DNA of 18,233 nucleotides, taken from Gemmatimonadota bacterium (GTDB lineage: Bacteria; Gemmatimonadota; Gemmatimonadetes; Longimicrobiales; RSA9). How positions within the stretch are numbered: position 1 is the first letter of the stretch; every line of letters begins with the position of its first letter. Positions 2 through 18,233 of the stretch are shown here, piece after piece. Made by a program: the position numbers and the translations under genes. Where the stretch lies: the NCBI GenBank assembly GCA_040905425.1, contig JBBDRO010000097.1, positions 1 through 18,233 on the forward strand, given 5' to 3'. A model generated the notes under the pieces. That model saw only the letters and a list, made by a program, of their open reading frames with translations, had not been told where the DNA came from and searched no databases.

Positions 2-418
2 GGGGGGCGGGTCCCGCCGCGCGAGCGCGGCGCGGCCATCGAACAGGTCTACCTGTCCCCCGCCGATCCCCAGGTGCGCATCCGTAAGGTGGACGGCCGC
101 TACGTGCAGACGGTCAAGGAGAAGGCCACCCGCATGGAGGTGGAGTTCCCGCTTCAGGCGGAGGTGGGGCGTGCCCTCTTCGAGCTGGCTATCACCGCGC
201 CCATCCGCAAGACGCGCTTCGTGGAGGGTCCCTGGGAGATCGACGTCTTCCACGGCCGCTTCGACGGGCTGGTCTATCTGGAGATCGAGGATCCGCCCCG
301 CACGCTGCCCCCGGTGCCCGGCTGGGTGGAGGTGGTGGGGCCCGCCTCCGCGGGCAACGTGAGGATGGCCACCATGAATGAGCGGAGCATCCGCGCGCTG
401 GTGGCCCGCTCACGCTGA
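2..418 (+). CDS. CYTH (class IV adenylate cyclase / triphosphate tunnel metalloenzyme) family protein, 5'-truncated by window edge
   Basis: The frame is open from base 2. Translation gives IEQVYL..VRIRK..YVQTVK..RMEVEF..IRKTRF..WEIDVFHG..GLVYLEIE, the typical CYTH motif order. The N-terminal ExExK motif would lie upstream of the window. Confidence 0.85.
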   Translation, partial: GGRVPPRERGAAIEQVYLSPADPQVRIRKVDGRYVQTVKEKATRMEVEFPLQAEVGRALFELAITAPIRKTRFVEGPWEIDVFHGRFDGLVYLEIEDPPRTLPPVPGWVEVVGPASAGNVRMATMNERSIRALVARSR

Positions 419-486
419 GGTGGCGCGCCCCCCGGTGGTGGCGGGCGCAACAAGGACCTGCCCCGTCTCCGCCCCCCGCACGGTCG

Positions 487-515
487 TGGACTTTCCGCGA
501 ACTTTCCCACACCTT
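487..515 (+). promoter_or_regulatory. Putative sigma70-type promoter for a leaderless transcript
   Basis: TGGACT (487-492), 17 nt, CACCTT (510-515), then ATG at 522 six nt later with no Shine-Dalgarno. ACTTTCC is repeated at 490 and 501. Confidence 0.4.
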
Positions 516-521
516 GCACGC

Positions 522-2381
522 ATGGACCCCTCCTCCCAACCCGCGCGCGGTAGCTACACCCCCACCGGTTGGCGCATCACCGGCTCCGGGGCGGGTGAGA
601 TCGTGGAGCGTTCCTCCGCGGCCGCCGCCCGCCTGCGCCCCGGCACCCCGCGGGAGACCCTCTTTGCCCTCCAGTGCACGGTGAACCCGGTGGTGCGCGG
701 CCGCCCGGCCGCGGAGCTGCTGCTGGAGGCCATCACCGATGACATCCGCCTGACGTGGCCCGAATGTCCGCGGCTGCTGCGCGACGAGGAGGTGGCGCGG
801 ACCCCGTCGCGCTTCGGCGGACTGCGCTATCAGGTCCGTGAGGAGCCCGGTACGGAGTGGCTGGGGGAGGTCATCTGGCGCTCGGTGCACCCCGTGGTGG
901 CGGGCGCCCCCATTACCACGCGGGTACTGCTCGAGGAGCGCAGCCATTACACGCGGGTGAACGTGCGGGTCACGGCCGACGAGGGCACGTTCAGCGTGCG
1001 CGGTTACGTGGGAGCCGGCCAGGCGCAGCCCGCCTTCCTGCGTGCGCTGGCGGGAGAGGGCAGCCTCACCTGGATGGGCGCGCCGGTGCGGCCGATCCCG
1101 CTCGGTCAAGGGGAGATCGCGGACTTCGTGGAGAGCGTACTCGCGGCGCCGGAGCGGGAACTCCCCGTGGCCGTGCTCGCCCCCACGGAGCGGGAGGAGT
1201 ACCTGGTGGATCCGGAGGACCTGGCGTGGCAGCTCCTGGGGCGGGCGCGCCTCTATTTCCTGCGCTTCCACGACCTCACGTTCGCGCTCACCGACACCAT
1301 CGGCGAGCGGCGCATGTCCGCCTACTGGGGCGCGGTGCACGGCTATTACCCCGGGTGGTCCCGGCACGACGACCCCATGGACCACCCGCTCCTGGTGGCG
1401 GATCGACTGGTGGATCCGGTGATCCGTGCCACCTGGCTGGGCGAGTTGGGGATGTGGCTGGGGGAGCGGGTTGAGCTGCCACCCCTGCTGGACGAGCGCT
1501 ACGAAGCGCCGGAGGAGGACGAGCCGGAGGAGGTGGATGAGGCGCCGGCCGCCGCCGCCGCCGCGGCGGCTGAGGCGGCTGAGGTGGAGATGGTGCCCGG
1601 TAGCGCGCCGGGCCCGCGGGAGAGCCCGGAGCCGAGCGCGCCGCCCACCCCCGCAGCCGCCGCTCCGCCCGCTACCTGGGCCGATCCCACGCCGCTCCTC
1701 TTCCGCCTCCTGGCTGACGTGGAGAAGGTGGCCGGTCTGGTCCGCGACCTGGCGGACGAGGTGGAGCGCCTGCGCACCATCGGCGCCGTGCGCTCCGCCA
1801 GCACCAGCGCCATCGAGCGTCGGCTGGGGCGGCTGGAGGCGTTCCTGGGGGAGGCGCTGGCCGGGGATGAGCCCGCGCAGGACGCCACCGGAGAGACGGG
1901 CGCCCCCGATCCCGCCGCGGAGGCGGAGGACGAGGGGCGCACCACCCTCGTGGAGGTGGTGGAGGGCGCCGCCGAGGCGCACGCCGACGCCCTGGTGTTC
2001 CTGGATTCGGCCCGTACCTCCGCAGCCGAGAGCCCCTTCGAGGACCCGGAGCGGGTGCGGGCGGTGCTGGACGCCATGGCCCGCGTAGCCAGGCAGCGGC
2101 GCGACGGCGTGCTGGGCACGTCGCTCCGGGAGGCCTTCCGCGACCTGGGTGTGGACTACCGCCCCGGCATAGCCAAAAGCACGTCGGGCCGGCTACGGGA
2201 GCAGTACCTCTTTACCGATGCCGCGGGCACCGCCGTGGAAGCGGTGGAGCACATTGCCCTGGGCGGCACCTACGACCCCCGCCGCTGTCTGCGCATCTAC
2301 TTCACCTCCCGCGTCCCCACCGAGCCGCGCTTCGTCATTGCCCACGTGGGGCGCCACTTCGAGGTGATGACCTCCACCTGA
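522..2381 (+). CDS. Hypothetical 619-aa multidomain protein with acidic/Pro-Ala linker, coiled coil and putative RelE/YafQ-like C-terminal domain
   Basis: Long ORF with GC3-rich codon usage from ATG 522 (the track's 378 start overlaps the CYTH gene). C-terminus reads EHIALGGTYDPRRCLRIYF..RFVIAHVGRH. The domain call is inference. Confidence 0.8.
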   Translation: MDPSSQPARGSYTPTGWRITGSGAGEIVERSSAAAARLRPGTPRETLFALQCTVNPVVRGRPAAELLLEAITDDIRLTWPECPRLLRDEEVARTPSRFGGLRYQVREEPGTEWLGEVIWRSVHPVVAGAPITTRVLLEERSHYTRVNVRVTADEGTFSVRGYVGAGQAQPAFLRALAGEGSLTWMGAPVRPIPLGQGEIADFVESVLAAPERELPVAVLAPTEREEYLVDPEDLAWQLLGRARLYFLRFHDLTFALTDTIGERRMSAYWGAVHGYYPGWSRHDDPMDHPLLVADRLVDPVIRATWLGELGMWLGERVELPPLLDERYEAPEEDEPEEVDEAPAAAAAAAAEAAEVEMVPGSAPGPRESPEPSAPPTPAAAAPPATWADPTPLLFRLLADVEKVAGLVRDLADEVERLRTIGAVRSASTSAIERRLGRLEAFLGEALAGDEPAQDATGETGAPDPAAEAEDEGRTTLVEVVEGAAEAHADALVFLDSARTSAAESPFEDPERVRAVLDAMARVARQRRDGVLGTSLREAFRDLGVDYRPGIAKSTSGRLREQYLFTDAAGTAVEAVEHIALGGTYDPRRCLRIYFTSRVPTEPRFVIAHVGRHFEVMTST

Positions 2382-5221: not shown

Positions 5222-7477
5222 GTGCCAGATCCGCGCTACATCCTCGAAGTAAAAAAAGGCTCGACTTTGGCAGACACCGCCGTCCAGCAGGCTGACTTCC
5301 CCAAGCGAATTCTGCTACTGTCCCTGCTTTCGCTGCTCGTGCCCGTGCTCAGTTCCGTGCTGTACCCGGAATGGACCAGCGAGGACATGGGCATGCTGGT
5401 CTGGGTGCTAGCGCTTGCGCCGGCCTTCCTGCTCTCCTACTACCGCGGCTGGCGCGGCTCCTCCATGGCGCTCGCGGCCGGCATGGCCGCCTTCTCCCTG
5501 GGCCAGGCCATTCTGCTGTGGCAGGGTGCGGAGCCGCCGGGCACGGAGGTCACGCTGGCCATCGTGGCGGTGCTGCTGATGGTCACCCTGGGGAGCGGCT
5601 GGCTGGCGTCCGTGTTCCGCTCCTCGCTGCGGGCCTCGGAGAGCATGGCGCTCACCGATGCCGGCACCGGGCTGCCCAATCGCCGCCACGCCACCCTGCA
5701 CCTGGAGCGCGCCTTCGAGGCCGCGCGCCGTGGGAACCAGCTCTCCGTGGTGGCCTTCGACCTGGATCATTTCAAGGGCATCAACGACCGCTTCGGCCAC
5801 GCCACGGGGGATCGGGTGCTGGCCGATTTCGGCCGTCTGCTGCAGGGCAGGACCCGGCAGATGGCGCTCTCCGCCCGTACCGGCGGCGAGGAGTTCATCA
5901 GCATCCTGGACGGCGTGGGCGCCGATGGCGCGCAGGTGTTCGCCAATCGCGTGCTGGAGGATCTGCGCAAGCTGGAGTACCCGTGGGGCGGGGTGAGCGC
6001 GAGCGCCGGGATCGCCGAGTACGAGGCCGGCATGTCCTCTCCGGACGTCCTCCTGGCCGCGGCCGACCAGGCGCTCTACCGCGCCAAGCAGAGTGGTCGC
6101 GATCAGGTGGCCACGCTGGCTCCGATGGGCATACGGCAGGTGCCCGCCCCCGCGCCCGCCACCGCATCTGCCTCCCGGTCGACCGCCCGCGCGCCCGCCA
6201 CCGCATCTGCCTCCGCGGCGGCCGCGCCCGCCGCCGTGCCCGTGCCTGCCCCATCGCATGCGCCCGGCACCGCGGCCCCCGATCCCGCCTCCGAGCTGCC
6301 CCCCGGTGCCAGTCCGAGGCGGCCGCCCGCCGAACGGGGCAGCGGCGAGCTGATCCTGGTCCTGGATGACGACCCGGCCGTGCTGCGCATGATCAGCCGG
6401 GCCCTCCACCGGCTGGGCTATTCATCGTTGGAGGCAACCCGCCCCGAGCAGGCGCTGGAGATCGTGCGCGGCCTCTCCGAGCCGCTGGATCTGGTGTTGA
6501 CGGACGTGGTCATGCCCTCCATGAGCGGCTTTCGCCTGGTGGAGGTCCTGGAGGAGCAACAGGGGCCCGTGCGGGTGGTCTACATGTCGGGCTACCACAG
6601 GACGGACGTGGAGTGGGCCGGTACCCCGGGCGCGGTCCGCACCTTCCTGGAGAAGCCCATCGAGTTCAGCGTGCTGGCCCGCACCATCCGCGCGGCGCTG
6701 GACGTCCCGCTCTCGCCTCGGGACGCTCCTCCGTCCGAGGGGGATCGAGACGGCAGGGAGGACGGGGACGATGGGGAGGACGGGAATGACTCGCCGAGCG
6801 CGTTGCGGGCACGGCTGACCGCCCAGACCGCCATGCTCGAGGAGGCCGTCAGCGACGTGGTCCAGCGCCTGGCCTGGGCGGCCGAGTATCGCGACGACGT
6901 GACGGGGCAGCACGCCCAGCGGGTGGGCCTGCTCACGGGCCTGCTGGCCGAGGAGCTCGGCATCGAGGAGCCGCTCAGGGGCATCATGGCCGGCGCGGCG
7001 CCGCTGCACGATCTGGGCAAGATCGCCATCCCCGATGGCATCCTCCACAAGCCGGGGCCGCTCACGGCGTCCGAGCGGATCCTCATCGAGACGCATGCCA
7101 GTCTGGGCGCCGACCTGCTCTCCGGCAGCCGCCACCCGCTCATCCGCGAGGCCGAGCGCGTGGCCAGGAGCCATCACGAATGGTGGAACGGCAGCGGCTA
7201 CCCCGATGGACTGCGCGGCGAGGAGATCCCCCGCTCCGCCCGCATCGTGGCCGTGGCGGACGTCTTCGACAGCCTGACCCACGACCGCCCCTACCGCCCG
7301 GCGTGCACCATCGAGGAGACCATGGCCAGCATCGTGGAGGGCAGTGGAGTGCAGTTCGATCCCGCCGTCGTGGACGCCCTCAGCCGCCTGCGGGCGAGCG
7401 GTGCGCTGGCCCGGGTGGACGCTACGGAGATCGTGGCATGGCCGGATGCGGCGGGTGGGGAGGGGGAGGCGTGGTGA
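5222..7477 (+). CDS. Membrane-bound diguanylate cyclase / receiver / HD-GYP phosphodiesterase fusion (true start may be TTG 5267)
   Basis: About 4 N-terminal hydrophobic helices. GGDEF domain: TDAGTGLPNRR, DLDHFKGINDRFGH, RTGGEEF. REC: ILVLDDD..VLTDVVMP..MSG..EKP. HD-GYP: HAQRV, LHDLGK, HHEWWNGSGYP, VADVFDSL. Confidence 0.94.
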   Translation: MPDPRYILEVKKGSTLADTAVQQADFPKRILLLSLLSLLVPVLSSVLYPEWTSEDMGMLVWVLALAPAFLLSYYRGWRGSSMALAAGMAAFSLGQAILLWQGAEPPGTEVTLAIVAVLLMVTLGSGWLASVFRSSLRASESMALTDAGTGLPNRRHATLHLERAFEAARRGNQLSVVAFDLDHFKGINDRFGHATGDRVLADFGRLLQGRTRQMALSARTGGEEFISILDGVGADGAQVFANRVLEDLRKLEYPWGGVSASAGIAEYEAGMSSPDVLLAAADQALYRAKQSGRDQVATLAPMGIRQVPAPAPATASASRSTARAPATASASAAAAPAAVPVPAPSHAPGTAAPDPASELPPGASPRRPPAERGSGELILVLDDDPAVLRMISRALHRLGYSSLEATRPEQALEIVRGLSEPLDLVLTDVVMPSMSGFRLVEVLEEQQGPVRVVYMSGYHRTDVEWAGTPGAVRTFLEKPIEFSVLARTIRAALDVPLSPRDAPPSEGDRDGREDGDDGEDGNDSPSALRARLTAQTAMLEEAVSDVVQRLAWAAEYRDDVTGQHAQRVGLLTGLLAEELGIEEPLRGIMAGAAPLHDLGKIAIPDGILHKPGPLTASERILIETHASLGADLLSGSRHPLIREAERVARSHHEWWNGSGYPDGLRGEEIPRSARIVAVADVFDSLTHDRPYRPACTIEETMASIVEGSGVQFDPAVVDALSRLRASGALARVDATEIVAWPDAAGGEGEAW
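6151..6214 (+). repeat. 25-bp direct repeat (39-nt period) in the Ala/Pro linker
   Basis: CGCGCCCGCCACCGCATCTGCCTCC at 6151-6175 and 6190-6214, encoding APATASAS twice. Confidence 0.85.
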
Positions 7478-7510: not shown

Positions 7511-8845
7511 TCACTCCGGACGCAGTCGATACCGCACCACCCACGGCACGTCCAGCTCGTCCCGCTCCACCACCACGAACGCATCGCCCGAGGCCCACGA
7601 GATGGTGGCATTGCGCGGCAGGGTAAAGCGACCACGCGGGTCACCCTCCGGCCCGAGCACGATCCATCGGTCCCGCAGACGCCCGTCGTCGGTCCATCGG
7701 ATCCAGGCGCTGCCGTCCGCGCCGCCCACCACCGAGCGCACGGGCGGCGCGTAGGCCGGGAAGTCCATGGTCGAGCGGAGCACCCGCGCCACCGGCGCCG
7801 GGTCATCGAGCGGCGGGTCGCGCTGGACGGCGCCGTCCACGATGCGCACCATGCCTGAGCCCTGCACGGCGCTCCGCCATGCCAGCGAATCCAGGTAGGC
7901 TTCGGTGTATCCCTCCGGTGTGTAACTGTAGGTGCGGTGGTGCAGGGTGTCCCCGGTGAGCCCCGTGCGGGTGAAGGCGATTTCGGCGGCCGCCACGCTC
8001 GTGGGAGCGGACCCGGTAATGGTTACACGCCCGTCTTCGAGGGCGTAGCCCCGCGGGTCGTCGGCCGGGGGCCGCGGCGTGTTGAAGGTCCGCCCCTCCG
8101 CCTGGGTCGTGGGCCGATCACCGGGAGCTTCGAGCGCCGGCCGGGGATCGAAGCCGATCGTGTCGATGACGTTGCCGTCCAGGTCGAAGCGCACGCGAGG
8201 TACGCGCACCATCGAGCCGGGAGGCGGGCCCTCCGGACCGTTCCCGGCCGCCATGTCGCGCATGAAAATGGTGATCTCGCCCTCGAGGCTGCCGTCCCGC
8301 CGCCACCTGTAGGGCTGCAGCGATCCCGTGAAGCCATTGCCCATTGCCACGCTGACGGAACCGCTCAGGGACCGGGTAGTCAAGTGCTCGCCGGCGAGGC
8401 TGAAAAAGGAGATCCGTCCCCTACTGAACCCCCCCGATTCGATCACCCAAAGGGTGTCCCCCACGATGCCCAGCCTGCCCCGCGAACCGAACTCCCCCGG
8501 ACCCTGTCCCCGGCGCCCGAATGTGGCCACCCGCGCCCCGGTGGGATCCAGCACCCGGATCTCCAGGTCCTGGTTCTCGAACACGTAGAGGTTCCCCACC
8601 GGGTCCACAGCCATGGAGCCGGGAGAACTGAAGCCGGCCTCGGGATCGTCCACGCTCCCCACCCGGAAGACCTCCTCCAGCGTCAGCTCCGGGACGTTGT
8701 CCAGCTCGGCGCCGGCGGAGGCCGGCCCCGCGCGGCAGGCGGTCAGCAGGGCGGTGGGGAGCAGAGTGGCGGAGAGCAGAGTGGCGGAGAGCAGGAAGGC
8801 GGAGAACTGGGCCAGGAGAGCGGGGAGGGGGCGAACAGGCTTCAT
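7511..8845 (-). CDS. Six-bladed beta-propeller (NHL/TolB-like) lipoprotein, 444 aa
   Basis: GGAG SD before ATG 8845 (MKPVR..); lipobox LTAC. Motifs LTLEEVFRVG, AVDPVGNLYV, FGRRGQGPGEF, and C-terminal RDELDVPWVVRYRL. Confidence 0.85.
   Translation of the reverse strand: MKPVRPLPALLAQFSAFLLSATLLSATLLPTALLTACRAGPASAGAELDNVPELTLEEVFRVGSVDDPEAGFSSPGSMAVDPVGNLYVFENQDLEIRVLDPTGARVATFGRRGQGPGEFGSRGRLGIVGDTLWVIESGGFSRGRISFFSLAGEHLTTRSLSGSVSVAMGNGFTGSLQPYRWRRDGSLEGEITIFMRDMAAGNGPEGPPPGSMVRVPRVRFDLDGNVIDTIGFDPRPALEAPGDRPTTQAEGRTFNTPRPPADDPRGYALEDGRVTITGSAPTSVAAAEIAFTRTGLTGDTLHHRTYSYTPEGYTEAYLDSLAWRSAVQGSGMVRIVDGAVQRDPPLDDPAPVARVLRSTMDFPAYAPPVRSVVGGADGSAWIRWTDDGRLRDRWIVLGPEGDPRGRFTLPRNATISWASGDAFVVVERDELDVPWVVRYRLRPE
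8744..8803 (-). repeat. 15-nt tandem repeat (4 units, 2 identical) within the signal peptide
   Basis: + strand GAGCAGAGTGGCGGA occurs twice with degenerate flanking units. It encodes SAFLL-SATLL-SATLL-PTALL. Confidence 0.85.
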
Positions 8846-8977
8846 GGTGAACTCCACGCGGTGGTGGGGGCAACCTCGTGTCCAGAGACTTCCCGCAGGC
8901 CATCGTTCCTGAACTATCAGGCTAGTTGATCTGTTCGCAGCGGGCAAGCGTACGCGCGCGCCGCAGGAGTGGGCCGC

Positions 8978-9697
8978 TCACCGGCACCGCCCCGCCCGAT
9001 AATCCGCCGGCAGGCACTCGAAGGCGCTGCCCGACCAGAGCCCCGCCCCCTCCGCCCGGGCGCTGTCCGCCGCGGCCCGCAGCAGCTCAACGAGTCGCAC
9101 GTTCGGCGGATAGACCGACACCACCGCCATGCCACGCCGCACCAGCGCCCGGTTCACGAGCAGGGAATCCACGTACGCGTATGCGAGCAGCCGCTCGTAG
9201 GGGTCCCGGACCTGCACATCGAACTCCAGGCGCACGCTGTCCCCGGCCGGCAGCAGCAGGGCGGCCGTGTCCCGCGCGGCCGCGCCGTACGGACCCTGAT
9301 CGAGCTCGGGAGTGTCGATGAGGAGCAGGCGGATGCGCTCGCCGCCGTCGCATTCAAAGGTGTCTCCATCGATGACCCGGGCTATGCGGCAGGTGGCGGA
9401 GCCGCCGATGGTGGCCGTGATGGCCCCTCCGCCGGGCGGGCCGCCGCAGCCGCGGGAGCGCGATGGCCGGTAGCCGGCCGCCTCGGCCGTCGCGCGGGTG
9501 GTGAAGCGGCGCAGGTTCTCGGGCTTCAACTGCTGCCAGGCGTCGCAGCCGATCCAGAAGTAGACCTGGCCCTGGCTCGAAGCCACGTAGGCGGTGGCAG
9601 TGTCGGCGGTCTGGGCGTGCAGCGCGCCGGGGGCCGCTGCGGCAGCCAAGAACCACGCGATCCCCACCATAGCGGTGGGCGGCAGCAGGCGGTTCAT
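8978..9697 (-). CDS. Secreted thermonuclease (SNase family) with N-terminal Ada-metal-binding-like domain
   Basis: Signal peptide ends ALHA|Q. SNase motifs RVIDGDT, RIRLLLIDTPE, DPYERLLAY, VNRALVRRGMA and GAGLW. N-domain YVASSQGQVYF..C..PENLRRF..AEAAGYRP. Confidence 0.92.
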   Translation of the reverse strand: MNRLLPPTAMVGIAWFLAAAAAPGALHAQTADTATAYVASSQGQVYFWIGCDAWQQLKPENLRRFTTRATAEAAGYRPSRSRGCGGPPGGGAITATIGGSATCRIARVIDGDTFECDGGERIRLLLIDTPELDQGPYGAAARDTAALLLPAGDSVRLEFDVQVRDPYERLLAYAYVDSLLVNRALVRRGMAVVSVYPPNVRLVELLRAAADSARAEGAGLWSGSAFECLPADYRAGRCR

Positions 9698-9782
9698 TCA
9701 CGTCCCGGGCTCGAGGGTCCAGATTCTCCGTGGATCGACGTAACATACGCCCGCCGTTCACAAAATCGATAGCATCTGTTAT

Positions 9783-9800
9783 TGTACAACATATTGTACA
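9783..9800. promoter_or_regulatory. Operator-like inverted repeat overlapping -10-like hexamers
   Basis: TGTACAA-CATA-TTGTACA. TATTGTACA is also a direct repeat (9780, 9792), giving two TACAAT hexamers on the - strand upstream of the nuclease gene. Confidence 0.5.
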
Positions 9801-10281
9801 CTGAGCCGTACTTGTCTCCCGCCGTCTGCGGGGCCGGCCAGGGTTGGCGCCCTCCAGAGGCATCCCTGCCGGCACACTCCGGGAACGGGCGCGAGCCGCG
9901 TCGGACAATACATGTGTTTGCATGTTCTGACATGCACCCAAGGCCCTGTAGTGACCTGACTTATCAAACATTTCTCACGAGCAACAAACCAAAAAACGGA
10001 TCGACAAGATTCGGCATTCTATAGAATATAGAATATTCTGGCTCAACCACGCGGCCCGGCCCGAAATTTCCAGAGCGTTTGATGACCCCTGGCCATCCCC
10101 GGCGTCCGCGGTTCGCCGCCGCCCACATTTCGGCGCCGGCAGCATTTCGGCGCCGGGCTGGAGCGGTCTTATGCAGCATTGCCCCGAGGCGCCTTGTCAC
10201 ACGCCCCCACTACCGTTTGATTTCCACCGGACCTCGACCCATACCCGAGCCTCGACCTTCGCCCGCGGAGCCTGACCCCGG

Positions 10282-13212
10282 ATGCCCGAACGCACCTTCC
10301 TCGGCTGGGACGCCCCGGCCCTGCCTGCCGCCGTGGCGCACCTCGCGGACCGCTATGCGGATGCGAATGCGGGGGCGCTGACGCTGCGCGACTGCGTGCT
10401 GGCGGTGCCCGGCAAGCGCGCGGGGCGGCGGGTGAAGGAACTGCTGGTGGCTGAGGCCGAGCGGCGCGGGCTCCGTCTGGTGCCACCGCGCGTGACCACG
10501 CCGGGCAGTCTGCCCGAGCTGCTCCGTCCCCCCGCACGACCGGTGGCCAGCGGCGCACTCTGCCGACGGGTCTGGGCCGACACGCTGCGGGCGCTCCGAC
10601 CGGAGCAGGCGGTGCGGCTCTTCGCGGAGGCGCCGGCGGGGGAGGATCTGCGTGGCTGGGTGGCGCTCGGCCGGCAGCTCGAGACGCTGCACCGCGAGGT
10701 GGCGGCCGGCGGGCTCACCTTCCAGGACGTGGCGGAGCGCTGCGGCGGGGAGCTGCTCTTCGACGATTCGCCGCGCTGGCTGCTGCTGGCGGACCTGCAG
10801 GCGGCCTACGCGGAGGCGCTCGAGCGGTTGGGCTTTACGGACCGCTACCTGGCGCGGGTCGCGGCGCTCGATGCGGCGGAGGCGGCGGAGGCGGCGGACG
10901 GCCCCGAGGTGTGGCTGCTGGGGGTGGCCGAGCTGCCGGTGGTGGTGCGGCGGCTGCTCGCGGCGCTGCCTGCGGGGCGGCTGCACGCGCTGATCCACGC
11001 GCCGGCGGACATGGCCGACGCCTTCGACGAGCTGGGCTGCGTGATCCCCGCCTTCTGGACGGACTATCCTGTGCCGGTGGAGGATGGCCAGCTCCTGGTG
11101 GTGGAGGGGCCCGCCGACCAGGCGGCGGCCACGGCCGGCCTGCTGGCGCGGCTCGAGGGGGCGTACAGCGCGGACGAGATCGCCGTGGGCGCGCCGGACG
11201 CGGAGGTGGTTCCTTATCTGGCGGAGCGGCTGGCGGAGGCGGGCGTGCCCGCACGGCACGCGGAGGGGCTGCCGGTGCGGGCCACGGCGCCCTACCGCTT
11301 CCTGGAAGCGGTGGCGGAGGTGCTGGAGGGCGGCAGCGCGGAGGCGTGGGCCGCGCTGGCGCGCCACCCGGACCTGTGGCGCTGGCTGCGGACGGCCGGC
11401 GCAGGGTTCGATCATGCGGGCGCCACGGCCCTCCGTTCGCCAGACGCGTGGCTGGAGCCGCTCGACAGCTACCTGGCGCGGCATCTGCCGGCGCGGCTGG
11501 GTCGGTCGCTCCCGGGCGGGGCGGACGCCCGGGGAAGGGCTGGAGTGGGCGCCCTGGTGCAGGCGGTCGGCGGCCTCACGCGGGCGCTCCGGGGCAGCAA
11601 GCCCGTACGCGAGTGGATGCCGCTGCTCATGGAGCTGCTGCTCGACGTCTACGGCACCCAGCGGCTGAACCGCCACGTCCACGAGGACCGCGTGCTGCTG
11701 GCGGCGTGCACCAAACTGCGTGACGCGGCAGGCGAGTTGGCCGCCGTGGCCACGGCGGCGGACCAGGCGTGCGCGCCGGCCGTGGCCATCCGGATTCTCC
11801 TGGATGACGCGGCGGGGGAGGCTATCGCGCCGGAGCCGGAGGAGGCGGCGGTGGAGATCCTGGGCTGGCTGGAAATGCATCTGGACGACGCGCCCGTGGC
11901 CATACTGACGGGGGTGAACGAGCCCTACCTACCCGCCTCCCTGAACGCCGACCCATTCCTGCCGGATGCCCTGCGCGCCGCCCTGGGGCTGGAGGACAAC
12001 GCCCGCCGGCAGGCCCGCGACGCGTACCAGCTGAGCGCCATCCTTCACACGCGCGCGCACGCGGGGGTGATCGTTGGTCGTCGCTCGGCGGCGGGGGACC
12101 CGCTGCGCCCGAGCCGGCTGGCGCTGGCGGCCACCGGGGCGCCGCTGGCGGAGCGCGTGCGGGCGTTCTTCGGTCACGAGGCGCCCGTGTCCGGTTGGGC
12201 GGCTGCGGCCGGTGGCGCCGGCGCCGAGGGGGACGCCACGCCTGTCTCCGCCTTCCGCCTGCCACCCGATCCCGAACTCCGCGCCGCCGAGCCGATCGAC
12301 CGGCTTGCCGTCACGGCGTTCCGCGGGCTGCTACAAGATCCCTATATGTTTGCTTTGGAACGGGTGCTCGGACTGCATACGCTGGACGACGACGCCCGCG
12401 AGATGGACGGGCTGGTCTTCGGTGACTTCGCCCACAAGGTGCTGGAGCGCTTCGGGCGGAGTGATCTGACAAGTCAAACTGATGTTGGAGTTCTTGCGGC
12501 TGGCCTGGACGGCATCCTGGATACGCTGGCGGAGGCCCGCTTCGGCAACGGCGCGCGCCCGGCCGTGCGCCTGCAACTGGCGCAGCTGCGCGCGCGGCTG
12601 CACGCCTTCGCGAAGTGGCAGGCCGAGCATGCCGCGGCGGGATGGCGGATCGTGGGCGTGGAGTGCGCCACCGAGGATGAGGGCGTGCCCTTCGAGGTGG
12701 ACGGGGCCCCCGTCCACCTGACCGGCCGTGTGGACCGCATCGACTACCACGCCGAGGAAGAGGCCTGGATGGTCCTCGACTATAAGACCGGTGACCGCGC
12801 TCACACCCCCGAGGATACCCACCGGCGCGGCCGGTCCGGGGCCCGGGAATGGGTGGATCTGCAGCTTCCCCTTTACCGGCACATCCTCCCCGCAGTCTGT
12901 GTTGACGCGAACAATCGGCTTGTAACACCCAAGATCGACCATGTTATGTTCGGCTATCTGACGCTTTGCGCGGAGGCCGACCATGTCGGCGCCTGCTTTG
13001 CCGAGTGGAGCGCGGCCGAGCTGGCCGAGGCGGACGAGGCGGCCCGCGGCTGCGTACGCATGCTGCGCAGGAACGTGTTCGCCTGGGAGCCCGGCGCGCG
13101 GGCGTACGCGCACGCCGACGTGAAGGCGCTGCTGGGGGAGGGTCGCCTGCTCTCGCCGGAGGACGAGGTGGACGGGGCGGATGAGCTGGACGTGCTGGGC
13201 GGGGCGAGATGA
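10282..13212 (+). CDS. addB: AddB-like subunit: degenerate helicase scaffold plus C-terminal PD-(D/E)XK (RecB-type) nuclease
   Basis: N-terminal LAVPGKRAGRR..TPGSLPE. Nuclease motifs LTGRVDRID, VLDYKTG and LQLPLY. ATGA overlap with the downstream UvrD-nuclease gene. Confidence 0.85.
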   Translation: MPERTFLGWDAPALPAAVAHLADRYADANAGALTLRDCVLAVPGKRAGRRVKELLVAEAERRGLRLVPPRVTTPGSLPELLRPPARPVASGALCRRVWADTLRALRPEQAVRLFAEAPAGEDLRGWVALGRQLETLHREVAAGGLTFQDVAERCGGELLFDDSPRWLLLADLQAAYAEALERLGFTDRYLARVAALDAAEAAEAADGPEVWLLGVAELPVVVRRLLAALPAGRLHALIHAPADMADAFDELGCVIPAFWTDYPVPVEDGQLLVVEGPADQAAATAGLLARLEGAYSADEIAVGAPDAEVVPYLAERLAEAGVPARHAEGLPVRATAPYRFLEAVAEVLEGGSAEAWAALARHPDLWRWLRTAGAGFDHAGATALRSPDAWLEPLDSYLARHLPARLGRSLPGGADARGRAGVGALVQAVGGLTRALRGSKPVREWMPLLMELLLDVYGTQRLNRHVHEDRVLLAACTKLRDAAGELAAVATAADQACAPAVAIRILLDDAAGEAIAPEPEEAAVEILGWLEMHLDDAPVAILTGVNEPYLPASLNADPFLPDALRAALGLEDNARRQARDAYQLSAILHTRAHAGVIVGRRSAAGDPLRPSRLALAATGAPLAERVRAFFGHEAPVSGWAAAAGGAGAEGDATPVSAFRLPPDPELRAAEPIDRLAVTAFRGLLQDPYMFALERVLGLHTLDDDAREMDGLVFGDFAHKVLERFGRSDLTSQTDVGVLAAGLDGILDTLAEARFGNGARPAVRLQLAQLRARLHAFAKWQAEHAAAGWRIVGVECATEDEGVPFEVDGAPVHLTGRVDRIDYHAEEEAWMVLDYKTGDRAHTPEDTHRRGRSGAREWVDLQLPLYRHILPAVCVDANNRLVTPKIDHVMFGYLTLCAEADHVGACFAEWSAAELAEADEAARGCVRMLRRNVFAWEPGARAYAHADVKALLGEGRLLSPEDEVDGADELDVLGGAR

Positions 13213-16200
13213 GCGCGCACGGGCAGCCGCAGCCGGCGCCGCTCCAGCTCCCCCGCCAGCTCGTGCTGGCCTCGGCCGGCTCGGGCAAGACGTTCCGCAT
13301 CTCCTCGGAGCTCATCCGGCTGCTGGCGCTCGGCCAGGCGCCGGATGAGATCCTTGCCTCCACCTTCACCCGCAAGGCGGCCGGCGAGATCCTGACGCGG
13401 GTGCTGCTGCGCCTGGCCGAGGCGGCCCTGGACGGCGACCAGGCGGCGGAGCTGGCCGGGCACACGGGCATGGGCGCTGTGCCGGGGAGCGCCGAGCCGG
13501 CCTTCTGGTGCGGCGTGCTGGAGCACACCGTCCGCCACCTGCACCGCCTGAACGTGGGCACGCTGGACGCCTTCTTCATGCGCAGCACGCGCAGCTTTGC
13601 GCTGGAGCTGGGCTTTCCGCCACGCTGGACGATCGCCGACGCGGCCGCGCGCCGCCGCCTGCACGAGCTGGCGCTCGGCGACGCCATGGCCGCCGTGGAG
13701 CCGGACCTCCTGGCGGAGGTGATCCACGCCATAGCCGAGGGGCAGGCACGCCGCTCCGTGCACGACAAGCTGCTGGAGGACATCGAGGGCCTGCTCCACG
13801 TGCAGCGCGCCCTGAATCCCGCGGTGGACGATGCCTGGCAGAGTTTCGATACGCTGGCCGGGAAGGGCAGGGCCGAGCCGGAGGCGCGCCCGCCGCTGGC
13901 AGCGGCCATCGCCGCCGCGGAGCCGCCGCGCACCCAAGCGGGCACCCCCAACGTCACCTGGCAGAAGGCGCTCGCGAGGACGGCGGGACTGGTGGCGGAG
14001 GGCCGCTGGAAGGAGCTGCTGCAGGAGACGCTGGTCAAGGCCGCCCGCGACGACGCGGCCTACGCCCGGCACCCTGTCCCGCCCGCCCTCCAGCGGCACT
14101 TCCAGGAGGCCGCGGCGCTGGCCCGCCTGGACCTGGCCGTACGCTACGCGAATGCGTCGCATGCCATGGGGACCTTCGCGCGGGTCTACGAGACGGCGCT
14201 GGAGAAGCGCGCCCGCGCCATGGGCCTCTTCGGCTTCGATGACGTCACGCGCCTGATGGGCGGTGCTTCTCCGCTCGGCGGCCGGCCCGATCTGCACTAC
14301 CGCCTGGACGCGCGCACCCGGCACGTGCTGCTCGACGAGTTCCAGGACACGTCGCTGGCGCAGTGGGAGGCGCTCCAGCCGATCGCCGACGAGCTGCTGG
14401 CCGGCCACGAGGGCGAGCGGGCGGCCGTCATCGTGGCCGATCCCAAGCAGTCCATCTACGGCTGGCGTGGCGGTGCGCCGGAGCTGGTGGACCACATCCG
14501 CGCGCGCTACGAACCCGAGCTGGCCACGCTGGCCCGCAGCTGGCGCTCCAGCCAGGTGGTGCTGGACACCGTGAACCGGGTCTTCGGCGCACTGGACGGG
14601 CTGCCCATCTGGGCGGACGATCCGGCGGGCGCGGAGGAGGCGCGCCGCTGGCTCACCGCCTTCACCCCGCACGAGGCCGAGCACGCGCAACTACGCGGCC
14701 ACGTGCGCATGGTGGTCGGGCCCGCCGACGAGCCGCGCAGCCGGCAGCGCCCCAACCTCTGCCGCGCCGCCGCCGAGCTGGTGGCCGACCTCAGCGCGCG
14801 GCTTCCTGGCCGCTCCATCGGCGTGCTCACGCGCGGCAACGCCGCGGTGGCGCGCATCATCATGGAGCTCCGCCGCCTGGGCGTGCCCACCAGCGAGGAG
14901 GGCGGTACGCCGCTCACTGACGCCGCGCCCGTGGCCACCCTGCTGGCGCTCCTCCGCATGGCCGATCACCCGGGCAACACGGTGGCCCGCTACCACGTGG
15001 CGCGCACCCCGCTCGGCGCCGCGCTGGACTACACCGATCCCACCGATGAGCCCGCCGCGCGCACCCTGGCGCACCAGGTGCGCCACCGCCTGGTGGTGGA
15101 CGGCTACGGGGCCACGCTGGCGGACGTGGCCGGCCGGGTGCTGGACGCGTGTGACGCGCGTGAGCGTCGTCGCTTAGGACAACTCGTGGAGCTGGCGTTC
15201 CGCTACGAGGATCAAGCGACGCTGCGTCCCTCCGACTTCGTCCGCTACGTCCACGCCGAACGCGTGGAGGATCCCACCGCGGCCGACGTGCGTGTGATGA
15301 CCGTGCACCAGTCGAAGGGGCTGGAGTTCGACGCCGTGGTGCTCCCCGAACTGGACGCGCCGCTCACGCAGACGGACGTGCGGCGGCCGCTGACGTACCG
15401 CCCCGAGCCCACCGCACGCGTCACGCGAGTCTTCCCCTACGTGCCCGGGGAACTGCGGACGCTCTTCGCGGATTTGCCCGAGCTGTCCGCCGCCGCCGAC
15501 CAGGCGTACGCCGCCGCCCTGCGCGACGCGCTGTCCACGCTCTACGTGGGGCTGACGCGCGCGCGCCACGCCGTGCACGTCATCGTGAAGCCGGATGGCA
15601 GGAGCGGTCGGGGCAGCGCGAAGACGGCCGCGCGGGTTCTGCGCGAGGCGCTGTGCGGGGAGGAGGAGGCCGTGGAGGGTGCGGTGCTGTATGAGGCGGG
15701 GGAGGCGGATTGGTATGGTGCGGGTGCGGGTGAGGCGGATCCGGCCGCCGCGCCGGTTGGGGCCGCCGCACCGGTTGGGGCCGCCGCACCCGCGCGCGTG
15801 GCCCTCCGCCGCGACCCGCACCGCACGCGTGTGCTGCCGCGCCACAGCCCCTCGGAGCTGGAGGGCGGCACGCACGTGGATCTCTCCCTGGTGCTCCGCC
15901 TGGGCACCACCGCGGCGCTCTCCCGCGGCTCGGTGGCGCACGCCTGGTTCGAGCGCATCGGCTGGCTGGAGGATGGCGTGCCCGCGCGCGCGGCGCTGCT
16001 GGCGTGCGGACGGGCGGCCGCGCCGGACATGGAGGGCGTCGAGCTGGCGGCGCTGCTGGAGCGCTTCATGGGTTGGCTGGAGGAACCGGGGCTTCGCGAC
16101 CGGTTGTCGCGCAGCCGCTTTCCGGCGGAGGTGGAAGTGGAGTTGGAGCGCGAGCTGCCCTTCATCCGGCGCGAGGCGGACGCCCTCATGGAGGGCGCCA

Positions 16201-16436
16201 TCGACCGGCTGGTGGTCGTCCGCCAGGCTGGGCGCCCGGTGGCGGCGGAGGTCCTGGACTACAAGACGGATGCCCTCGAGCCCGGCAACGAGGCCGGCCT
16301 CCGCCACCGCGTGGAGCACTACCAGCCGCAGATGGCGGCCTACCGGCGCGCGGTGGCGGAGATGTACGCACTGGAGGCCAGCGCGGTGCGGGGCGCGCTG
16401 GCCTTCGTGGAGTGCGGGGTGGTGGTGGAGCTCTGA
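13209..16436 (+). CDS. addA: AddA-like UvrD (SF1A) helicase with C-terminal RecB-type nuclease
   Basis: Walker A ASAGSGKT, TFTRKAAGE, DEFQD, DPKQSIYGWRG, SWRS, TVHQSKGLEF, LYVGLTRA. Nuclease motifs EGAIDRL, VLDYKT and QMAAY. Confidence 0.92.
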   Translation: MSAHGQPQPAPLQLPRQLVLASAGSGKTFRISSELIRLLALGQAPDEILASTFTRKAAGEILTRVLLRLAEAALDGDQAAELAGHTGMGAVPGSAEPAFWCGVLEHTVRHLHRLNVGTLDAFFMRSTRSFALELGFPPRWTIADAAARRRLHELALGDAMAAVEPDLLAEVIHAIAEGQARRSVHDKLLEDIEGLLHVQRALNPAVDDAWQSFDTLAGKGRAEPEARPPLAAAIAAAEPPRTQAGTPNVTWQKALARTAGLVAEGRWKELLQETLVKAARDDAAYARHPVPPALQRHFQEAAALARLDLAVRYANASHAMGTFARVYETALEKRARAMGLFGFDDVTRLMGGASPLGGRPDLHYRLDARTRHVLLDEFQDTSLAQWEALQPIADELLAGHEGERAAVIVADPKQSIYGWRGGAPELVDHIRARYEPELATLARSWRSSQVVLDTVNRVFGALDGLPIWADDPAGAEEARRWLTAFTPHEAEHAQLRGHVRMVVGPADEPRSRQRPNLCRAAAELVADLSARLPGRSIGVLTRGNAAVARIIMELRRLGVPTSEEGGTPLTDAAPVATLLALLRMADHPGNTVARYHVARTPLGAALDYTDPTDEPAARTLAHQVRHRLVVDGYGATLADVAGRVLDACDARERRRLGQLVELAFRYEDQATLRPSDFVRYVHAERVEDPTAADVRVMTVHQSKGLEFDAVVLPELDAPLTQTDVRRPLTYRPEPTARVTRVFPYVPGELRTLFADLPELSAAADQAYAAALRDALSTLYVGLTRARHAVHVIVKPDGRSGRGSAKTAARVLREALCGEEEAVEGAVLYEAGEADWYGAGAGEADPAAAPVGAAAPVGAAAPARVALRRDPHRTRVLPRHSPSELEGGTHVDLSLVLRLGTTAALSRGSVAHAWFERIGWLEDGVPARAALLACGRAAAPDMEGVELAALLERFMGWLEEPGLRDRLSRSRFPAEVEVELERELPFIRREADALMEGAIDRLVVVRQAGRPVAAEVLDYKTDALEPGNEAGLRHRVEHYQPQMAAYRRAVAEMYALEASAVRGALAFVECGVVVEL
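15744..15790 (+). repeat. 18-nt tandem repeat (about 2.6 units) in the helicase-nuclease linker
   Basis: GCCGCCGC(G/A)CCGGTTGGG twice plus a partial unit, encoding AAAPVG AAAPVG AAAP. Confidence 0.85.
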
Positions 16437-16511
16437 GACAGTACCGGCGCCGCCCCCTTTTCGTTATCTTCCACGGTCAGCAACGCCCCGCTTCCGCGAC
16501 CCAGGATGAAC

Positions 16512-16904
16512 ATGGCCGACGCATCCAGCCCGCCCCCGCAGGATTTCGTGGTCAAGACCGCCTCCCTTTACGCCCGCGCGGGCTTCGACGGCGGTGACCT
16601 GCTGCGGCCCGCGTTCCCCACGCTCGGTGCCGGGGATCTGCGTGCGCTGCTGGTGGGTGTCATCCATCACTACGTCATCCCCGTGCTCGATCAGAGCGTC
16701 CAGACGCTGCAGATCCCCACCGGCCACAACCCTCTCCGGGCCGCCAGTGTGGACGGCGTCAGCGTGCGCTGGACCACCGCCGAGCACGGCAACGGCCCGC
16801 CCCTCACGCCGGCCACGGTGACGGTGACCATGGAGCAGGTGCTGGCCGCCGCGAAGCGGCTGCGCATCGCGGTCGTCCCCGCCTCCGCCGAGGCGAGCGC
16901 CTAG
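16512..16904 (+). CDS. Hypothetical protein (~130 aa; alternative start 16506)
   Basis: ORF with genome-typical codon usage between addA and the metK promoter. Contains GFDGGD and HNPLRA..VDG segments. Function unknown. Confidence 0.75.
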   Translation: MADASSPPPQDFVVKTASLYARAGFDGGDLLRPAFPTLGAGDLRALLVGVIHHYVIPVLDQSVQTLQIPTGHNPLRAASVDGVSVRWTTAEHGNGPPLTPATVTVTMEQVLAAAKRLRIAVVPASAEASA

Positions 16905-16946
16905 CGGGAGCCAGAGGCCCGGGTGACGCCGCCAGGCCGCCTCCGC

Positions 16947-16976
16947 TTGCCCCGTCCGGGCAGCAAGGTATATTGT
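16947..16976 (+). promoter_or_regulatory. Putative sigma70 promoter of the metK leader
   Basis: TTGCCC (16947-16952) with TATATT (16969-16974) or TATTGT (16971-16976). This places the TSS at about 16981, just before the aptamer P1. Confidence 0.6.
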
Positions 16977-16982
16977 TACGAA

Positions 16983-17085
16983 CAGGCAGCATTTAGCCGC
17001 GAGACAGCGGCTACCTACTTGGCCGGCCTGACCCCTACGCCGCGGCAATGCCGTGTGCCGCGGGGTCGAACAGGGACTAAAGGGT
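16983..17085 (+). ncRNA. Putative SAM-II/SAM-V-class riboswitch aptamer with long, hairpin-containing loops
   Basis: P1 CAGGC(16983-87)/GCCUG(17026-30), with motif order CAUUU..CUUG..ACUAAAGGG as in SAM-II/V. Inserted hairpins AGCCGC/GCGGCU and CCGCGGCA/UGCCGCGG. Located directly upstream of metK. Confidence 0.72.
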
Positions 17086-17092
17086 GACGCGT

Positions 17093-17130
17093 ACGACCTG
17101 CGATCACCGGTGATCGCAGGTCGTTTTTTT
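17093..17130 (+). terminator. Intrinsic terminator (attenuator) in the metK leader
   Basis: Perfect 32-nt palindrome ACGACCTGCGATCACC-GGTGATCGCAGGTCGT running into T7 (17124-17130), 18 nt before the metK start. Confidence 0.9.
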
Positions 17131-17148
17131 ATGCATGGAGGGGTGCCC

Positions 17149-18233
17149 GTGTCCGCCTACGTCTTCACGTCCGAGTCCGTCTCCGAGGGCCACCCCGACA
17201 AGGTGGCCGACCTCATCTCCGACAGCGTGCTGGACGCCTGCCTGGCGCGCGACCCCCGTTCCCGCGTGGCGTGTGAAACCCTGGTGAAGGGCGGCCACGT
17301 CTTCCTGGCCGGGGAGGTGAGCATCCCCGGTCAGCCGGCGCCGGACTGGGAGGACGTGGTCCGCGCGGCCGTGCGCAGCGTGGGCTACACGGACCCCGCC
17401 GACCCCTTCGCGGCGGACACGCTCCAGCTCCACGCGTACGTGACGGAGCAGTCGGACCAGATCAGGCAGGGCGTGAGCGGCGGGGAGGAGCTCGGCGCGG
17501 GCGACCAGGGCCTCATGTTCGGCTACGCCACGGACGAGACGCCCGAGCTCATGCCGCTGCCCGTGCTCCTGGCGCACCGCCTGGCCGCCGCCCTGGCCAG
17601 CGACCGCAAGCGCGGCGCCGTCCCGTTCCTCCGCCCCGACTCCAAGACGCAGATCTCGGTGGCCTACCAGAACGAGGTGCCCGTGGGCGTGACCGCCGTG
17701 CTGGTCTCCACGCAGCACGCCCCCGGTGCCCTGGATCAGGTGTCCGCGCATGTGCGTGAGAACCTCCTCCCGCGTGTCCTCGGCGATTGGTATCACCCGG
17801 GCATCGAGGTCCTGATCAACACGGCCGGCGAGTGGACGGTGGGCGGCCCCGCGGCGGACGCGGGGCTCACCGGCCGCAAGATCATCGTGGACACCTACGG
17901 CGGCCGGGCGCGCCACGGCGGCGGCGCCTTCAGCGGCAAGGATGCCACCAAGGTGGACCGCAGCGGCGCCTACTTCTGCCGCTGGCTGGCGCGCCAGGTG
18001 GTGGCGCGGGGCCTGGCCAGCCGCGCGGAGATTCAGGTGGCCTACGCCATCGGCCGCGCCGCACCCGTGTCGGTGGCCGTGGACACCTTCCATACAGGCG
18101 ACAACGCCGCGGCGGCCGCCTTCGTGGCGCGTCATGATTTTCGCCCGGCGGCCATCATCGAGCGCCTGGGACTCGACTGCCCCATCTATCGCGCCACCAC
18201 CAATTACGGGCATTTCGGACGGCCGGGGCTGCC
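17149..18233 (+). CDS. metK: S-adenosylmethionine synthetase (methionine adenosyltransferase), 3'-truncated by window edge
   Basis: GGAGGGG SD (17137-17143) and GTG start. Manual translation gives FTSESVSEGHPDKVADLISD, GAGDQGLMFGYA, LRPDSKTQ, GLTGRKIIVDTYGG, HGGGAFSGKDATKVDRSGAY and YGHFGR. Absent from the ORF track because there is no stop in the window. Confidence 0.98.
   Translation, partial: MSAYVFTSESVSEGHPDKVADLISDSVLDACLARDPRSRVACETLVKGGHVFLAGEVSIPGQPAPDWEDVVRAAVRSVGYTDPADPFAADTLQLHAYVTEQSDQIRQGVSGGEELGAGDQGLMFGYATDETPELMPLPVLLAHRLAAALASDRKRGAVPFLRPDSKTQISVAYQNEVPVGVTAVLVSTQHAPGALDQVSAHVRENLLPRVLGDWYHPGIEVLINTAGEWTVGGPAADAGLTGRKIIVDTYGGRARHGGGAFSGKDATKVDRSGAYFCRWLARQVVARGLASRAEIQVAYAIGRAAPVSVAVDTFHTGDNAAAAAFVARHDFRPAAIIERLGLDCPIYRATTNYGHFGRPGL

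Follow-up and report, generated by a model that had tools for sequence, protein, structure and literature searches.

An 18,233-nucleotide stretch of Gemmatimonadota DNA (assembly GCA_040905425.1, contig JBBDRO010000097.1; hereafter the window) carries a structured leader of ~110 nucleotides (nt) between a promoter and an intrinsic terminator, directly upstream of the S-adenosylmethionine (SAM) synthetase gene metK (Table 1). This leader is probably a SAM-responsive transcriptional OFF switch that is built on the SAM-II/SAM-V pseudoknot, that is missed by current models, and that controls metK. It is a variant of a known device and brings no new principle. We stop short of calling it an established member of the SAM-II clan because model-based recognition failed, one core pair is a mismatch, and ligand binding is a prediction.

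The window has a GC content of 72%. A scan of positions 16800 to 17300 yields a single promoter-like site, which is of the sigma-70 type (one seen versus 0.0 expected from shuffled sequences), and a single terminator-like site (one seen versus 0.1 expected). Transcription would begin near nucleotide 16981, about two nucleotides ahead of the first helix, P1. The resulting order of promoter, P1, terminator and metK is the arrangement of SAM-II RNAs given in Corbino 2005, which describes promoters that usually lie a few nucleotides before P1 and, in many representatives, a terminator after P2. The three MetK Pfam domains of the gene product have E-values ranging from 1.7e-33 to 5e-54, and its best named relatives are from Gemmatimonadota (71% identity) and Longimicrobiales (68%). 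A MetK protein encoded on a 64,832-nt ENA contig (P0001) is 96% identical to that of the window. The 191-nt leader is also more stable than its shuffled versions (z = -2.67), as evident by the fact that only 2 of 200 shuffles are equally stable.

The leader can form a pseudoknot in which P1 encloses loop 1, an extra hairpin and the segment ACCUACUUGGCC (17013-17024), which is able to pair with the 3′ strand of P2, GGACUAAAGGGU (17074-17085). As pairing potential only, P2 comprises nine pairs and one mismatch. Its P2a portion offers three Watson-Crick pairs and one wobble (A17013-U17085, C17014-G17084, C17015-G17083 and U17016.G17082). The upper portion of P2b offers U17019-A17080 and U17020-A17079 with U17078 unpaired, and the lower portion offers G17021-C17077, the mismatch G17022.A17076, C17023-G17075 and C17024-G17074. 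Within loop 1, the AUUU element at 16991-16994 begins three nucleotides past P1, and the hairpin that follows may be extended by a seventh pair, U16994-A17013. An earlier note on this DNA, which had proposed P1, the AGCAUUU loop, both hairpins, and a 3′ segment that forms a pseudoknot with ACCU and UUGGCC with one G-A mismatch, placed each of these elements correctly, and a pair-by-pair check confirms the pairs. Its inventory passed over G17025 and the ten bases GGUCGAACAG (17064-17073) that link the loop-3 hairpin to the 3′ strand of P2. This linker includes the sequence CGAACA (17067-17072).

Two other observations concern the same regions. The UUUAG sequence at 16992-16996, which spans loop 1 and the first hairpin, is exactly complementary to CUAAA at 17077-17081 in the 3′ strand of P2 (five Watson-Crick pairs), which is a possible alternative pairing in the ligand-free RNA, and similar but weaker complementarity is present in the long-loop SAM-II RNAs of Rfam family RF01726. 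A 10-codon upstream open reading frame at 17049-17081 (ATG at 17049 to TAA at 17079) runs through loop 3 and the 3′ strand of P2; no obvious ribosome-binding site was seen for it, and it is probably meaningless. Because it is the sole upstream open reading frame and carries no internal Met codon, a Met leader-peptide attenuator is unlikely.

Among known aptamers, SAM-V (metY/bhmT, Candidatus Pelagibacter) is closest to the leader in its letters. The SAM-V consensus in the Stockholm file of Meyer 2009 reads RGGY..AUUUGA..A.CYRUAU..UGUGC-RCCY..RAAGY-ACUAA-AAARG, where RGGY and RCCY form P1, U..UGUGC forms P2 with GY-AC-AA, and the U of ACUAA is unpaired. The leader keeps this order and pairing scheme with AGGC, AUUU, UUGGCC-G-GCCU and GGACUAAA. 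Its P1 fits RGGY/RCCY as (C)AGGC/GCCU(G) and its ACUAAA fits the consensus, while AUUU and UUG are conserved in SAM-V, in the RF01726 consensus, and in a second metK leader (L002) that is described below.

The bases that contact the ligand in known structures are likewise retained. According to Huang and Lilley 2018, the unpaired U47 of SAM-V forms pairs with both U8 and the SAM adenine, the triple U20:A48.U9 lies around the sulfonium with U19:A49.U10 as the next triple, G21 stacks on the ligand, and A50, which is paired with A18, grips the amino-acid end of SAM; inosine at A50 severely impaired binding. All of these contact bases (U47, A48, A49, A50, U8 through U10, U19, U20 and G21) are identical in the leader, in which UUG (17019-17021) faces A-A-(unpaired U)-C followed by a further A (17077-17081). 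The SAM-II contacts listed in Kelley and Hamelberg 2010 (U10/U11/U12, U20-U21-G22 and U44-A45-A46-A47, with an A19:A47 pair) and the RF01726 consensus also have identical letters in the leader. The partner of A50 is ambiguous, as either A17017 or C17018 could take the place of A18, and we infer that these nucleotides and A17081 are the counterpart of the A:A pair that grips the amino-acid end. By analogy with the published SAM-V and SAM-II structures, the loop-1 uridines would serve as the third strand of a triplex.

The leader departs from this core in three respects, which are the G.A pair below the G-C pair, the 18-nt hairpin that extends loop 1, and the length of loop 3, which reaches 43 nt and includes an 8-base-pair hairpin. 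The loop-3 hairpin is not exotic because loop 3 of SAM-V also contains a stem-loop (P3), after which come stacked adenines that make A-minor contacts (Huang and Lilley 2018). The loop-1 hairpin is the unusual part, as neither L002 nor the long-loop RNAs have it. Therefore, of the two inserted stems that the earlier note had regarded as distinctive, only the one in loop 1 can be considered so.

As described for SAM-II (the metA motif, RF00521; metX structure 2QWY, PMC3303485), this class shares with the leader an H-type pseudoknot of P1, P2b and P2a, a U-rich loop 1 in the P2b groove, the UUG element, a bulged U followed by A nucleotides on the 3′ strand, a promoter that abuts P1, an intrinsic terminator after P2, and a location before methionine or SAM genes, where SAM-II acts as a genetic OFF switch. 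SAM-II RNAs are mostly transcriptional, with a stable P2a that has 5 base pairs in 60% of cases (Huang and Lilley 2018), and the four-base-pair P2a of the leader resembles this arrangement. However, the leader has no RF00521 match at E ≤ 10, carries a G.A pair in P2b, and bears hairpins in both loops, whereas PMC6061858 describes P3 as absent from SAM-II. Corbino 2005 reports SAM-II from the Bacteroides group and from proteobacteria, namely alpha-proteobacteria and a few others, whereas the host here belongs to Gemmatimonadota.

The differences from SAM-V are of another kind. SAM-V is translational, with a 2-base-pair P2a that hides the Shine-Dalgarno sequence, whereas the leader has four P2a pairs and a terminator. 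Furthermore, the U22-A45 pair of SAM-V corresponds to G.A in the leader, SAM-V has no loop-1 hairpin, and it is an AT-rich marine family, in contrast to the GC-rich window. The RF01726 long-loop RNAs (L042, L047 and L080) also precede metK and have P2a, the unpaired A region, UU/AA, the bulged U, the G-C pair, a short lower helix, and an equally weak calculated P2 energy, but neither loop 1 nor loop 3 contains a hairpin in these RNAs, and loop 3 consists of consecutive A residues.

A second RNA of this kind was found among the relatives. A MetK search of genome contigs provided at least 80 metK loci, with the best relatives listed being 60-63% identical, and the closest among the matches listed (63%) is L002, a Gemmatimonadaceae metagenome-assembled genome (MAG; DATFHG010000078.1). 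Its unannotated metK leader shares with that of the window the overall architecture, the loop-3 hairpin, an overlap between P2a and an antiterminator, and, ahead of metK, a hairpin that ends in a U-rich tail. AUUU, UUG, C-U-AA and CGAACA are unchanged between the two, while the helix letters vary with pairing kept, and the same is true of the helices in a hand-anchored comparison of five RNAs (the two leaders plus L042, L047 and L080). The L002 P2 is the best duplex partner of the L002 3′ strand (-16.2 kcal/mol; 19 of 1000 shuffled strands as good), and its P2b is perfect and permits one register only. The L002 leader differs from the window leader in lacking the loop-1 hairpin and in having G instead of A after CUAA, and the two are so dissimilar in sequence that a covariance model of a single sequence does not connect them.

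L002 thus keeps AUUU/UUG/C-U-AA together with P1 and P2. In a motif search that covered 400 nt ahead of metK in each of the 80 loci, CTAAAG and GCATT did not co-occur, and reading by eye upstream of L003 and 19 further, mostly GC-rich loci, including the eight other Gemmatimonadota loci, revealed no similar motif. Comparison of nine window proteins (tblastn) and of the leader (blastn) with the 80 loci gave no synteny and no leader similarity, and a tblastn search of plasmids with MetK returned 189 records, all with <60% identity.

Downstream of the aptamer, the RNA can form an antiterminator hairpin with one bulge. For RNAs that terminate at 17108 and at 17112, this hairpin is the minimum free energy (MFE) fold, with -9.9 and -11.5 kcal/mol, respectively, and on its own it has an energy of -10.9 kcal/mol. 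Its 3′ arm (17099-17108) is the upper part of the 5′ arm of the terminator, and its 5′ arm includes the GGU (G17083-U17085) of the P2a 3′ strand. Therefore, P2 and the antiterminator are mutually exclusive, and when the 3′ strand of P2 is blocked in folding calculations, only the terminator forms. In L002, a hairpin at 1378-1397 overlaps the 3′ strand of P2a and the 5′ arm of a bulged hairpin, and GUUUUGUUUU follows. In both leaders, then, the P2a 3′ strand also serves a terminator-competing hairpin as its 5′ arm. The folding energies point to the classical logic of an OFF switch, which fits control of metK by SAM. A bidirectional terminator that serves a convergent gene is unlikely, as no convergent gene was read on the other strand.

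These elements suggest how the switch would operate. P1 and the two loop hairpins would be the first to fold. When SAM is abundant, nucleotides 17074-17085 would dock on 17013-17024 to form P2b and P2a, with AUUU lying in the major groove. The SAM adenine would be located opposite the bulged U17078 and stacked between U17020 and G17021, the sulfonium would lie beside the U17020:A17079.U16993 layer, and the amino-acid end would reach A17081. With GGGU thus occupied, the antiterminator could not form, and the terminator would be expected to halt transcription before metK. When SAM is scarce, the free 3′ strand would instead build the antiterminator and permit read-through into metK.

Several results weigh against this assignment. 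No Rfam family matches the window at the gathering threshold, and scans at E ≤ 10 of 16880-17180 (301 nt) and of 16978-17092 (115 nt) yield only weak, unrelated matches and no SAM family, as the earlier note had anticipated for standard models. The library searched contains RF01726, and we assume that it also contains RF00521 and the SAM-V model, which is presumably RF01826. A covariance model constructed from the three Rfam-verified long-loop RNAs, with P2 as its structure, matches neither the window nor L002 at E ≤ 10, while one constructed from L002 alone gives 63 window matches at E ≤ 10, with the plus-strand leader not among them. The L002 leader likewise has no Rfam match at the gathering threshold or, over positions 1290-1450, at E ≤ 10, and a simple promoter and terminator scan of L002 called neither feature. 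The variant is known from two sequences, which are two of the five RNAs in the comparison described above, and the pair counts rest on a hand-anchored table because the MAFFT alignment of the five RNAs was unusable. Finally, the terminator (-25 kcal/mol) far exceeds the antiterminator (approximately -10 kcal/mol) in stability. The earlier description of the leader as a divergent SAM-II/SAM-V member is thus supported in part, by the core letters, the pairing and the second example, but no covariance model shows this membership.

In a rival reading, the leader is an attenuator or a small terminated transcript that responds to a protein, to another RNA or to nothing, and its likeness to SAM-II and SAM-V arose by chance. 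We consider this unlikely. It would be consistent with the failure of every model-based search to support membership, with the post hoc nature of the descriptor used below, with the small number of examples and with a duplex test in which 581 of 1000 shuffled strands pair as well as the P2 3′ strand of the window. However, this test has no power because the verified long-loop RNAs fail it too (604, 650 and 195 of 1000 shuffles as good). A T-box is likewise unlikely, as there is no Rfam match and the leader is too short.

The expectation by chance was estimated with a descriptor that requires P1 of at least 4 base pairs; ATTT 0-4 nt later; TTG with a lower helix of 2-6 positions and at most one mismatch; the P1 3′ strand; and then the complementary strand with C-T-AA, with loop 1 of at most 45 nt and loop 3 of at most 70 nt. 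A first version was dropped because it was noisy in AT-rich loci and missed the window leader, as it required three lower pairs. On both strands of the window, the descriptor has one match, at the metK leader, which also holds the only plus-strand CTAAA of the window. Any match occurs in 2 of 300 simulated Markov-1 windows (mean 0.0067), although these figures are optimistic because the sequences were already known when the descriptor was composed. In the 35 metK loci with GC ≥ 0.6 (138,123 nt), the single match is the L002 metK leader. At intermediate GC there are 5 matches in 80,012 nt, and in AT-rich DNA the descriptor is unspecific (53 matches in 93,374 nt), which also tells against the assignment. 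As a control, the exact canonical site was found in two of the three Rfam-verified long-loop RNAs.

Chance thus amounts to ~0.007 per window even before location is counted, and L002 provides an independent match at the same place relative to metK. Coincidence is a poor explanation for a match that lies on the correct strand, between a promoter and a terminator and immediately ahead of metK. Moreover, features outside the descriptor also fit, namely the third A of CUAAA, the 4-base-pair P2a, the CGAACA that both leaders share, the position of the promoter next to P1, and the antiterminator that overlaps P2a.

Further difficulties for this assignment reside in the pocket itself. The lower part of P2b includes one non-Watson-Crick pair, G17022.A17076, at a position that is A-U in L002, C-G in the long-loop RNAs and U-A in SAM-V. 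A different register of P2b, in which A17076 is bulged and G17022-C17077 and G17021.U17078 form, is more stable on paper (-7.9 versus -3.7 kcal/mol), and because it pairs U17078 it would abolish the canonical pocket. The P2 energy of -3.7 kcal/mol is itself weak, but the verified long-loop RNA L042 has a value of -3.6 kcal/mol, and weak calculated P2 energies are therefore normal for the class. L002 has G at the position of A50 in SAM-V, where inosine impairs binding, and consequently even this cleaner example is not a textbook member. The leader of the 64,832-nt contig that encodes P0001 would be the nearest comparison for the question of the G17022.A17076 pair.

These observations would suit a SAM-II-like fold with an altered or degenerate pocket, which might sense S-adenosylhomocysteine (SAH) or another SAM-related compound in the A17076-bulged register, bind SAM differently, or be a decaying, unresponsive switch. 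There is precedent in SAM-I variants that sense spermidine and still precede a metK gene. Such a pocket is nevertheless very unlikely in our estimation, as all SAM-contacting bases of SAM-V and SAM-II are retained, the controlled gene is metK, and the terminator/antiterminator logic is intact. It also seems quite unlikely that the window leader and L002 constitute a distinct, undescribed Gemmatimonadota subclass of the SAM-II fold that is GC-rich and transcriptional, with a P3-like stem, a conserved CGAACA linker and a tolerated loop-1 hairpin, and whose pocket changes reflect another mode of holding SAM or a specificity shifted to a SAM-related compound. That such an RNA may be undescribed in this lineage, as the earlier note supposed, agrees with the open literature searched (subscription journals apart), which contained no report of a SAM riboswitch in Gemmatimonadota, and a title and abstract search for SAM-II variants found nothing relevant.

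Other SAM riboswitch classes are used on metK in other lineages, as is evident from the leaders of related metK genes. An Rfam scan that took in 40 of the 80 loci identified SAM-I/IV RNAs (L001 and L011), SAM-I RNAs (L016 and L046) and the long-loop RNAs, such that, even in a sample of this size, three or more aptamer architectures control this gene family. An unrelated RF00519 sRNA is located downstream of metK in L029 (3181-3255). The leader could on this basis be conceived as a divergent member of SAM-I, SAM-IV, SAM-I/IV, SAM-III, SAM-VI or the SAM/SAH class, but we give this extremely little credence. The leader matches no member of these families at E ≤ 10, whereas the same tool found SAM-I/IV and SAM-I in the four loci just named, and the predicted folds have no multi-helix junction. 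Furthermore, in the translational classes SAM-III and SAM-VI, the Shine-Dalgarno sequence is part of a three-way junction, whereas here it lies downstream of the terminator.

Elsewhere in the window, an AddB-like and an AddA-like gene form a pair with overlapping stop and start codons. Among the 120 matches listed for the AddA-like helicase-nuclease (13209-16436), those labelled by organism are almost all from Longimicrobiales, Longimicrobiaceae or Gemmatimonadota, with 47-53% identity. Together with the MetK relatives, these labels suggest that the host is probably an uncultured, Longimicrobiales-like bacterium. The intergenic region that precedes the AddB-like gene (9780-10160) is locally AT-rich and contains three repeats: TATTGTACA twice (~9780-9800), the palindromic TTCTATAGAATATAGAATATTCT (~10018-10040), and CATTTCGGCGCCGG twice (10125-10158). 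All three may serve as operators for the DNA-repair operon. A single 751-amino acid (aa) protein would combine domains for the synthesis and for the breakdown of cyclic di-GMP. Some of the four long open reading frames (ORFs) that lack a Pfam match may not be genes, given the GC-rich sequence.

Table 1. Coordinates of the metK leader, its counterpart in L002, Rfam-matched leaders of other metK loci, and further genes of the window. Positions refer to the window unless a locus is named.
Feature	Coordinates	Strand	Details
Promoter, sigma-70-like, TTGCCC-16 nt-TATATT	16947-16974	+	sole promoter-like site in 16800-17300
P1 5′ strand, CAGGC	16983-16987	+	5 Watson-Crick pairs with 17026-17030
Loop 1, AGCAUUU	16988-16994	+	A16991-U16994, proposed triplex third strand
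Extra loop-1 hairpin, AGCCGC-GAGACA-GCGGCU	16995-17012	+	6 bp, 18 nt; in MFE and centroid folds
P2a 5′ strand, ACCU	17013-17016	+	pairs with 17082-17085
A17017 and C17018, opposite A17081	17017-17018	+	2 nt (5′ side) versus 1 nt (3′ side) unpaired
P2b 5′ strand, UUGGCC	17019-17024	+	pairs with 17074-17080
P1 3′ strand, GCCUG	17026-17030	+	pairs with 16983-16987; G17025 just before is unpaired
Loop 3 with P3-like hairpin, then GGUCGAACAG	17031-17073	+	43 nt; MFE and centroid folds
Loop-3 hairpin, CCGCGGCA/UGCCGCGG	17040-17063	+	8 bp, 8-nt loop; sequence and folds
P2b 3′ strand, GGAC-U-AA, plus A17081	17074-17081	+	U17078, proposed bulged U
P2a 3′ strand, GGGU	17082-17085	+	common to antiterminator
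Antiterminator hairpin	17083-17108	+	17083-17091 with 17099-17108, one bulge; MFE when RNA ends at 17108 or 17112
Intrinsic terminator	17093-17130	+	14-bp GC-rich stem 17093-17124, then T run; -25.0 kcal/mol
Shine-Dalgarno, GGAGGGG	~17138-17144	+	precedes metK GTG 17149; downstream of terminator
metK (SAM synthetase)	17149-18233	+	GTG start 17149; continues past window end; three MetK Pfam domains
L002 SAM-II-like leader, before metK	L002 1277-1425		unannotated; pseudoknot plus antiterminator/terminator pair
L002 P1, GCGCGGC/GCCGCGC	L002 1312-1318/1338-1344		7 bp
L002 loop 1, G-AUUU	L002, AUUU at 1320		
L002 P2, CGA-U-UUGACGG with CCGUC-(U)-AA-G-UCG	L002 1327-1337/1370-1381		no mismatch; U1375 unpaired
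L002 P3 hairpin	L002 1347-1361		5 bp, in loop 3
L002 CGAACA	L002 1361-1366		directly before P2 3′ strand
SAM-I/IV before metK	L001 1189-1312		Rfam; Aminicenantes MAG
SAM-I/IV before metK	L011 1308-1412		Rfam; Comamonadaceae MAG
SAM-I before metK	L016 1287-1383; L046 1320-1421		Rfam; two Bacillota MAGs
SAM-II long loop RF01726 before metK	L042, L047, L080		Rfam, 56-74 bits; Bacteroidota
Long ORF	378-2381		667 aa; no Pfam match at E ≤ 0.001
GGDEF, response-regulator receiver and HD-GYP-type HD protein	5222-7477		751 aa
Long ORF	7511-8947	-	478 aa; no Pfam match at E ≤ 0.001
Long ORF	8969-9772		267 aa; no Pfam match at E ≤ 0.001
AddB-like (PD-(D/E)XK nuclease) and AddA-like (UvrD helicase plus nuclease) pair	10282-16436		976 aa and 1075 aa; stop/start overlap 13209-13212
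Long ORF, upstream of metK leader	16506-16904		132 aa; no Pfam match at E ≤ 0.001

This finding does not alter the current understanding of SAM riboswitch function. If the assignment is correct, it would extend the SAM-II fold to Gemmatimonadota, and it would indicate that, within a small pseudoknot class, members that are GC-rich and bear insertions are under-detected by current Rfam models, in which case surveys of riboswitch distribution would miss such members. The hairpin in the distal part of loop 1, which would form the triplex, and the non-Watson-Crick pair beneath the ligand layer would then represent natural experiments on the tolerance of the SAM-II pocket.

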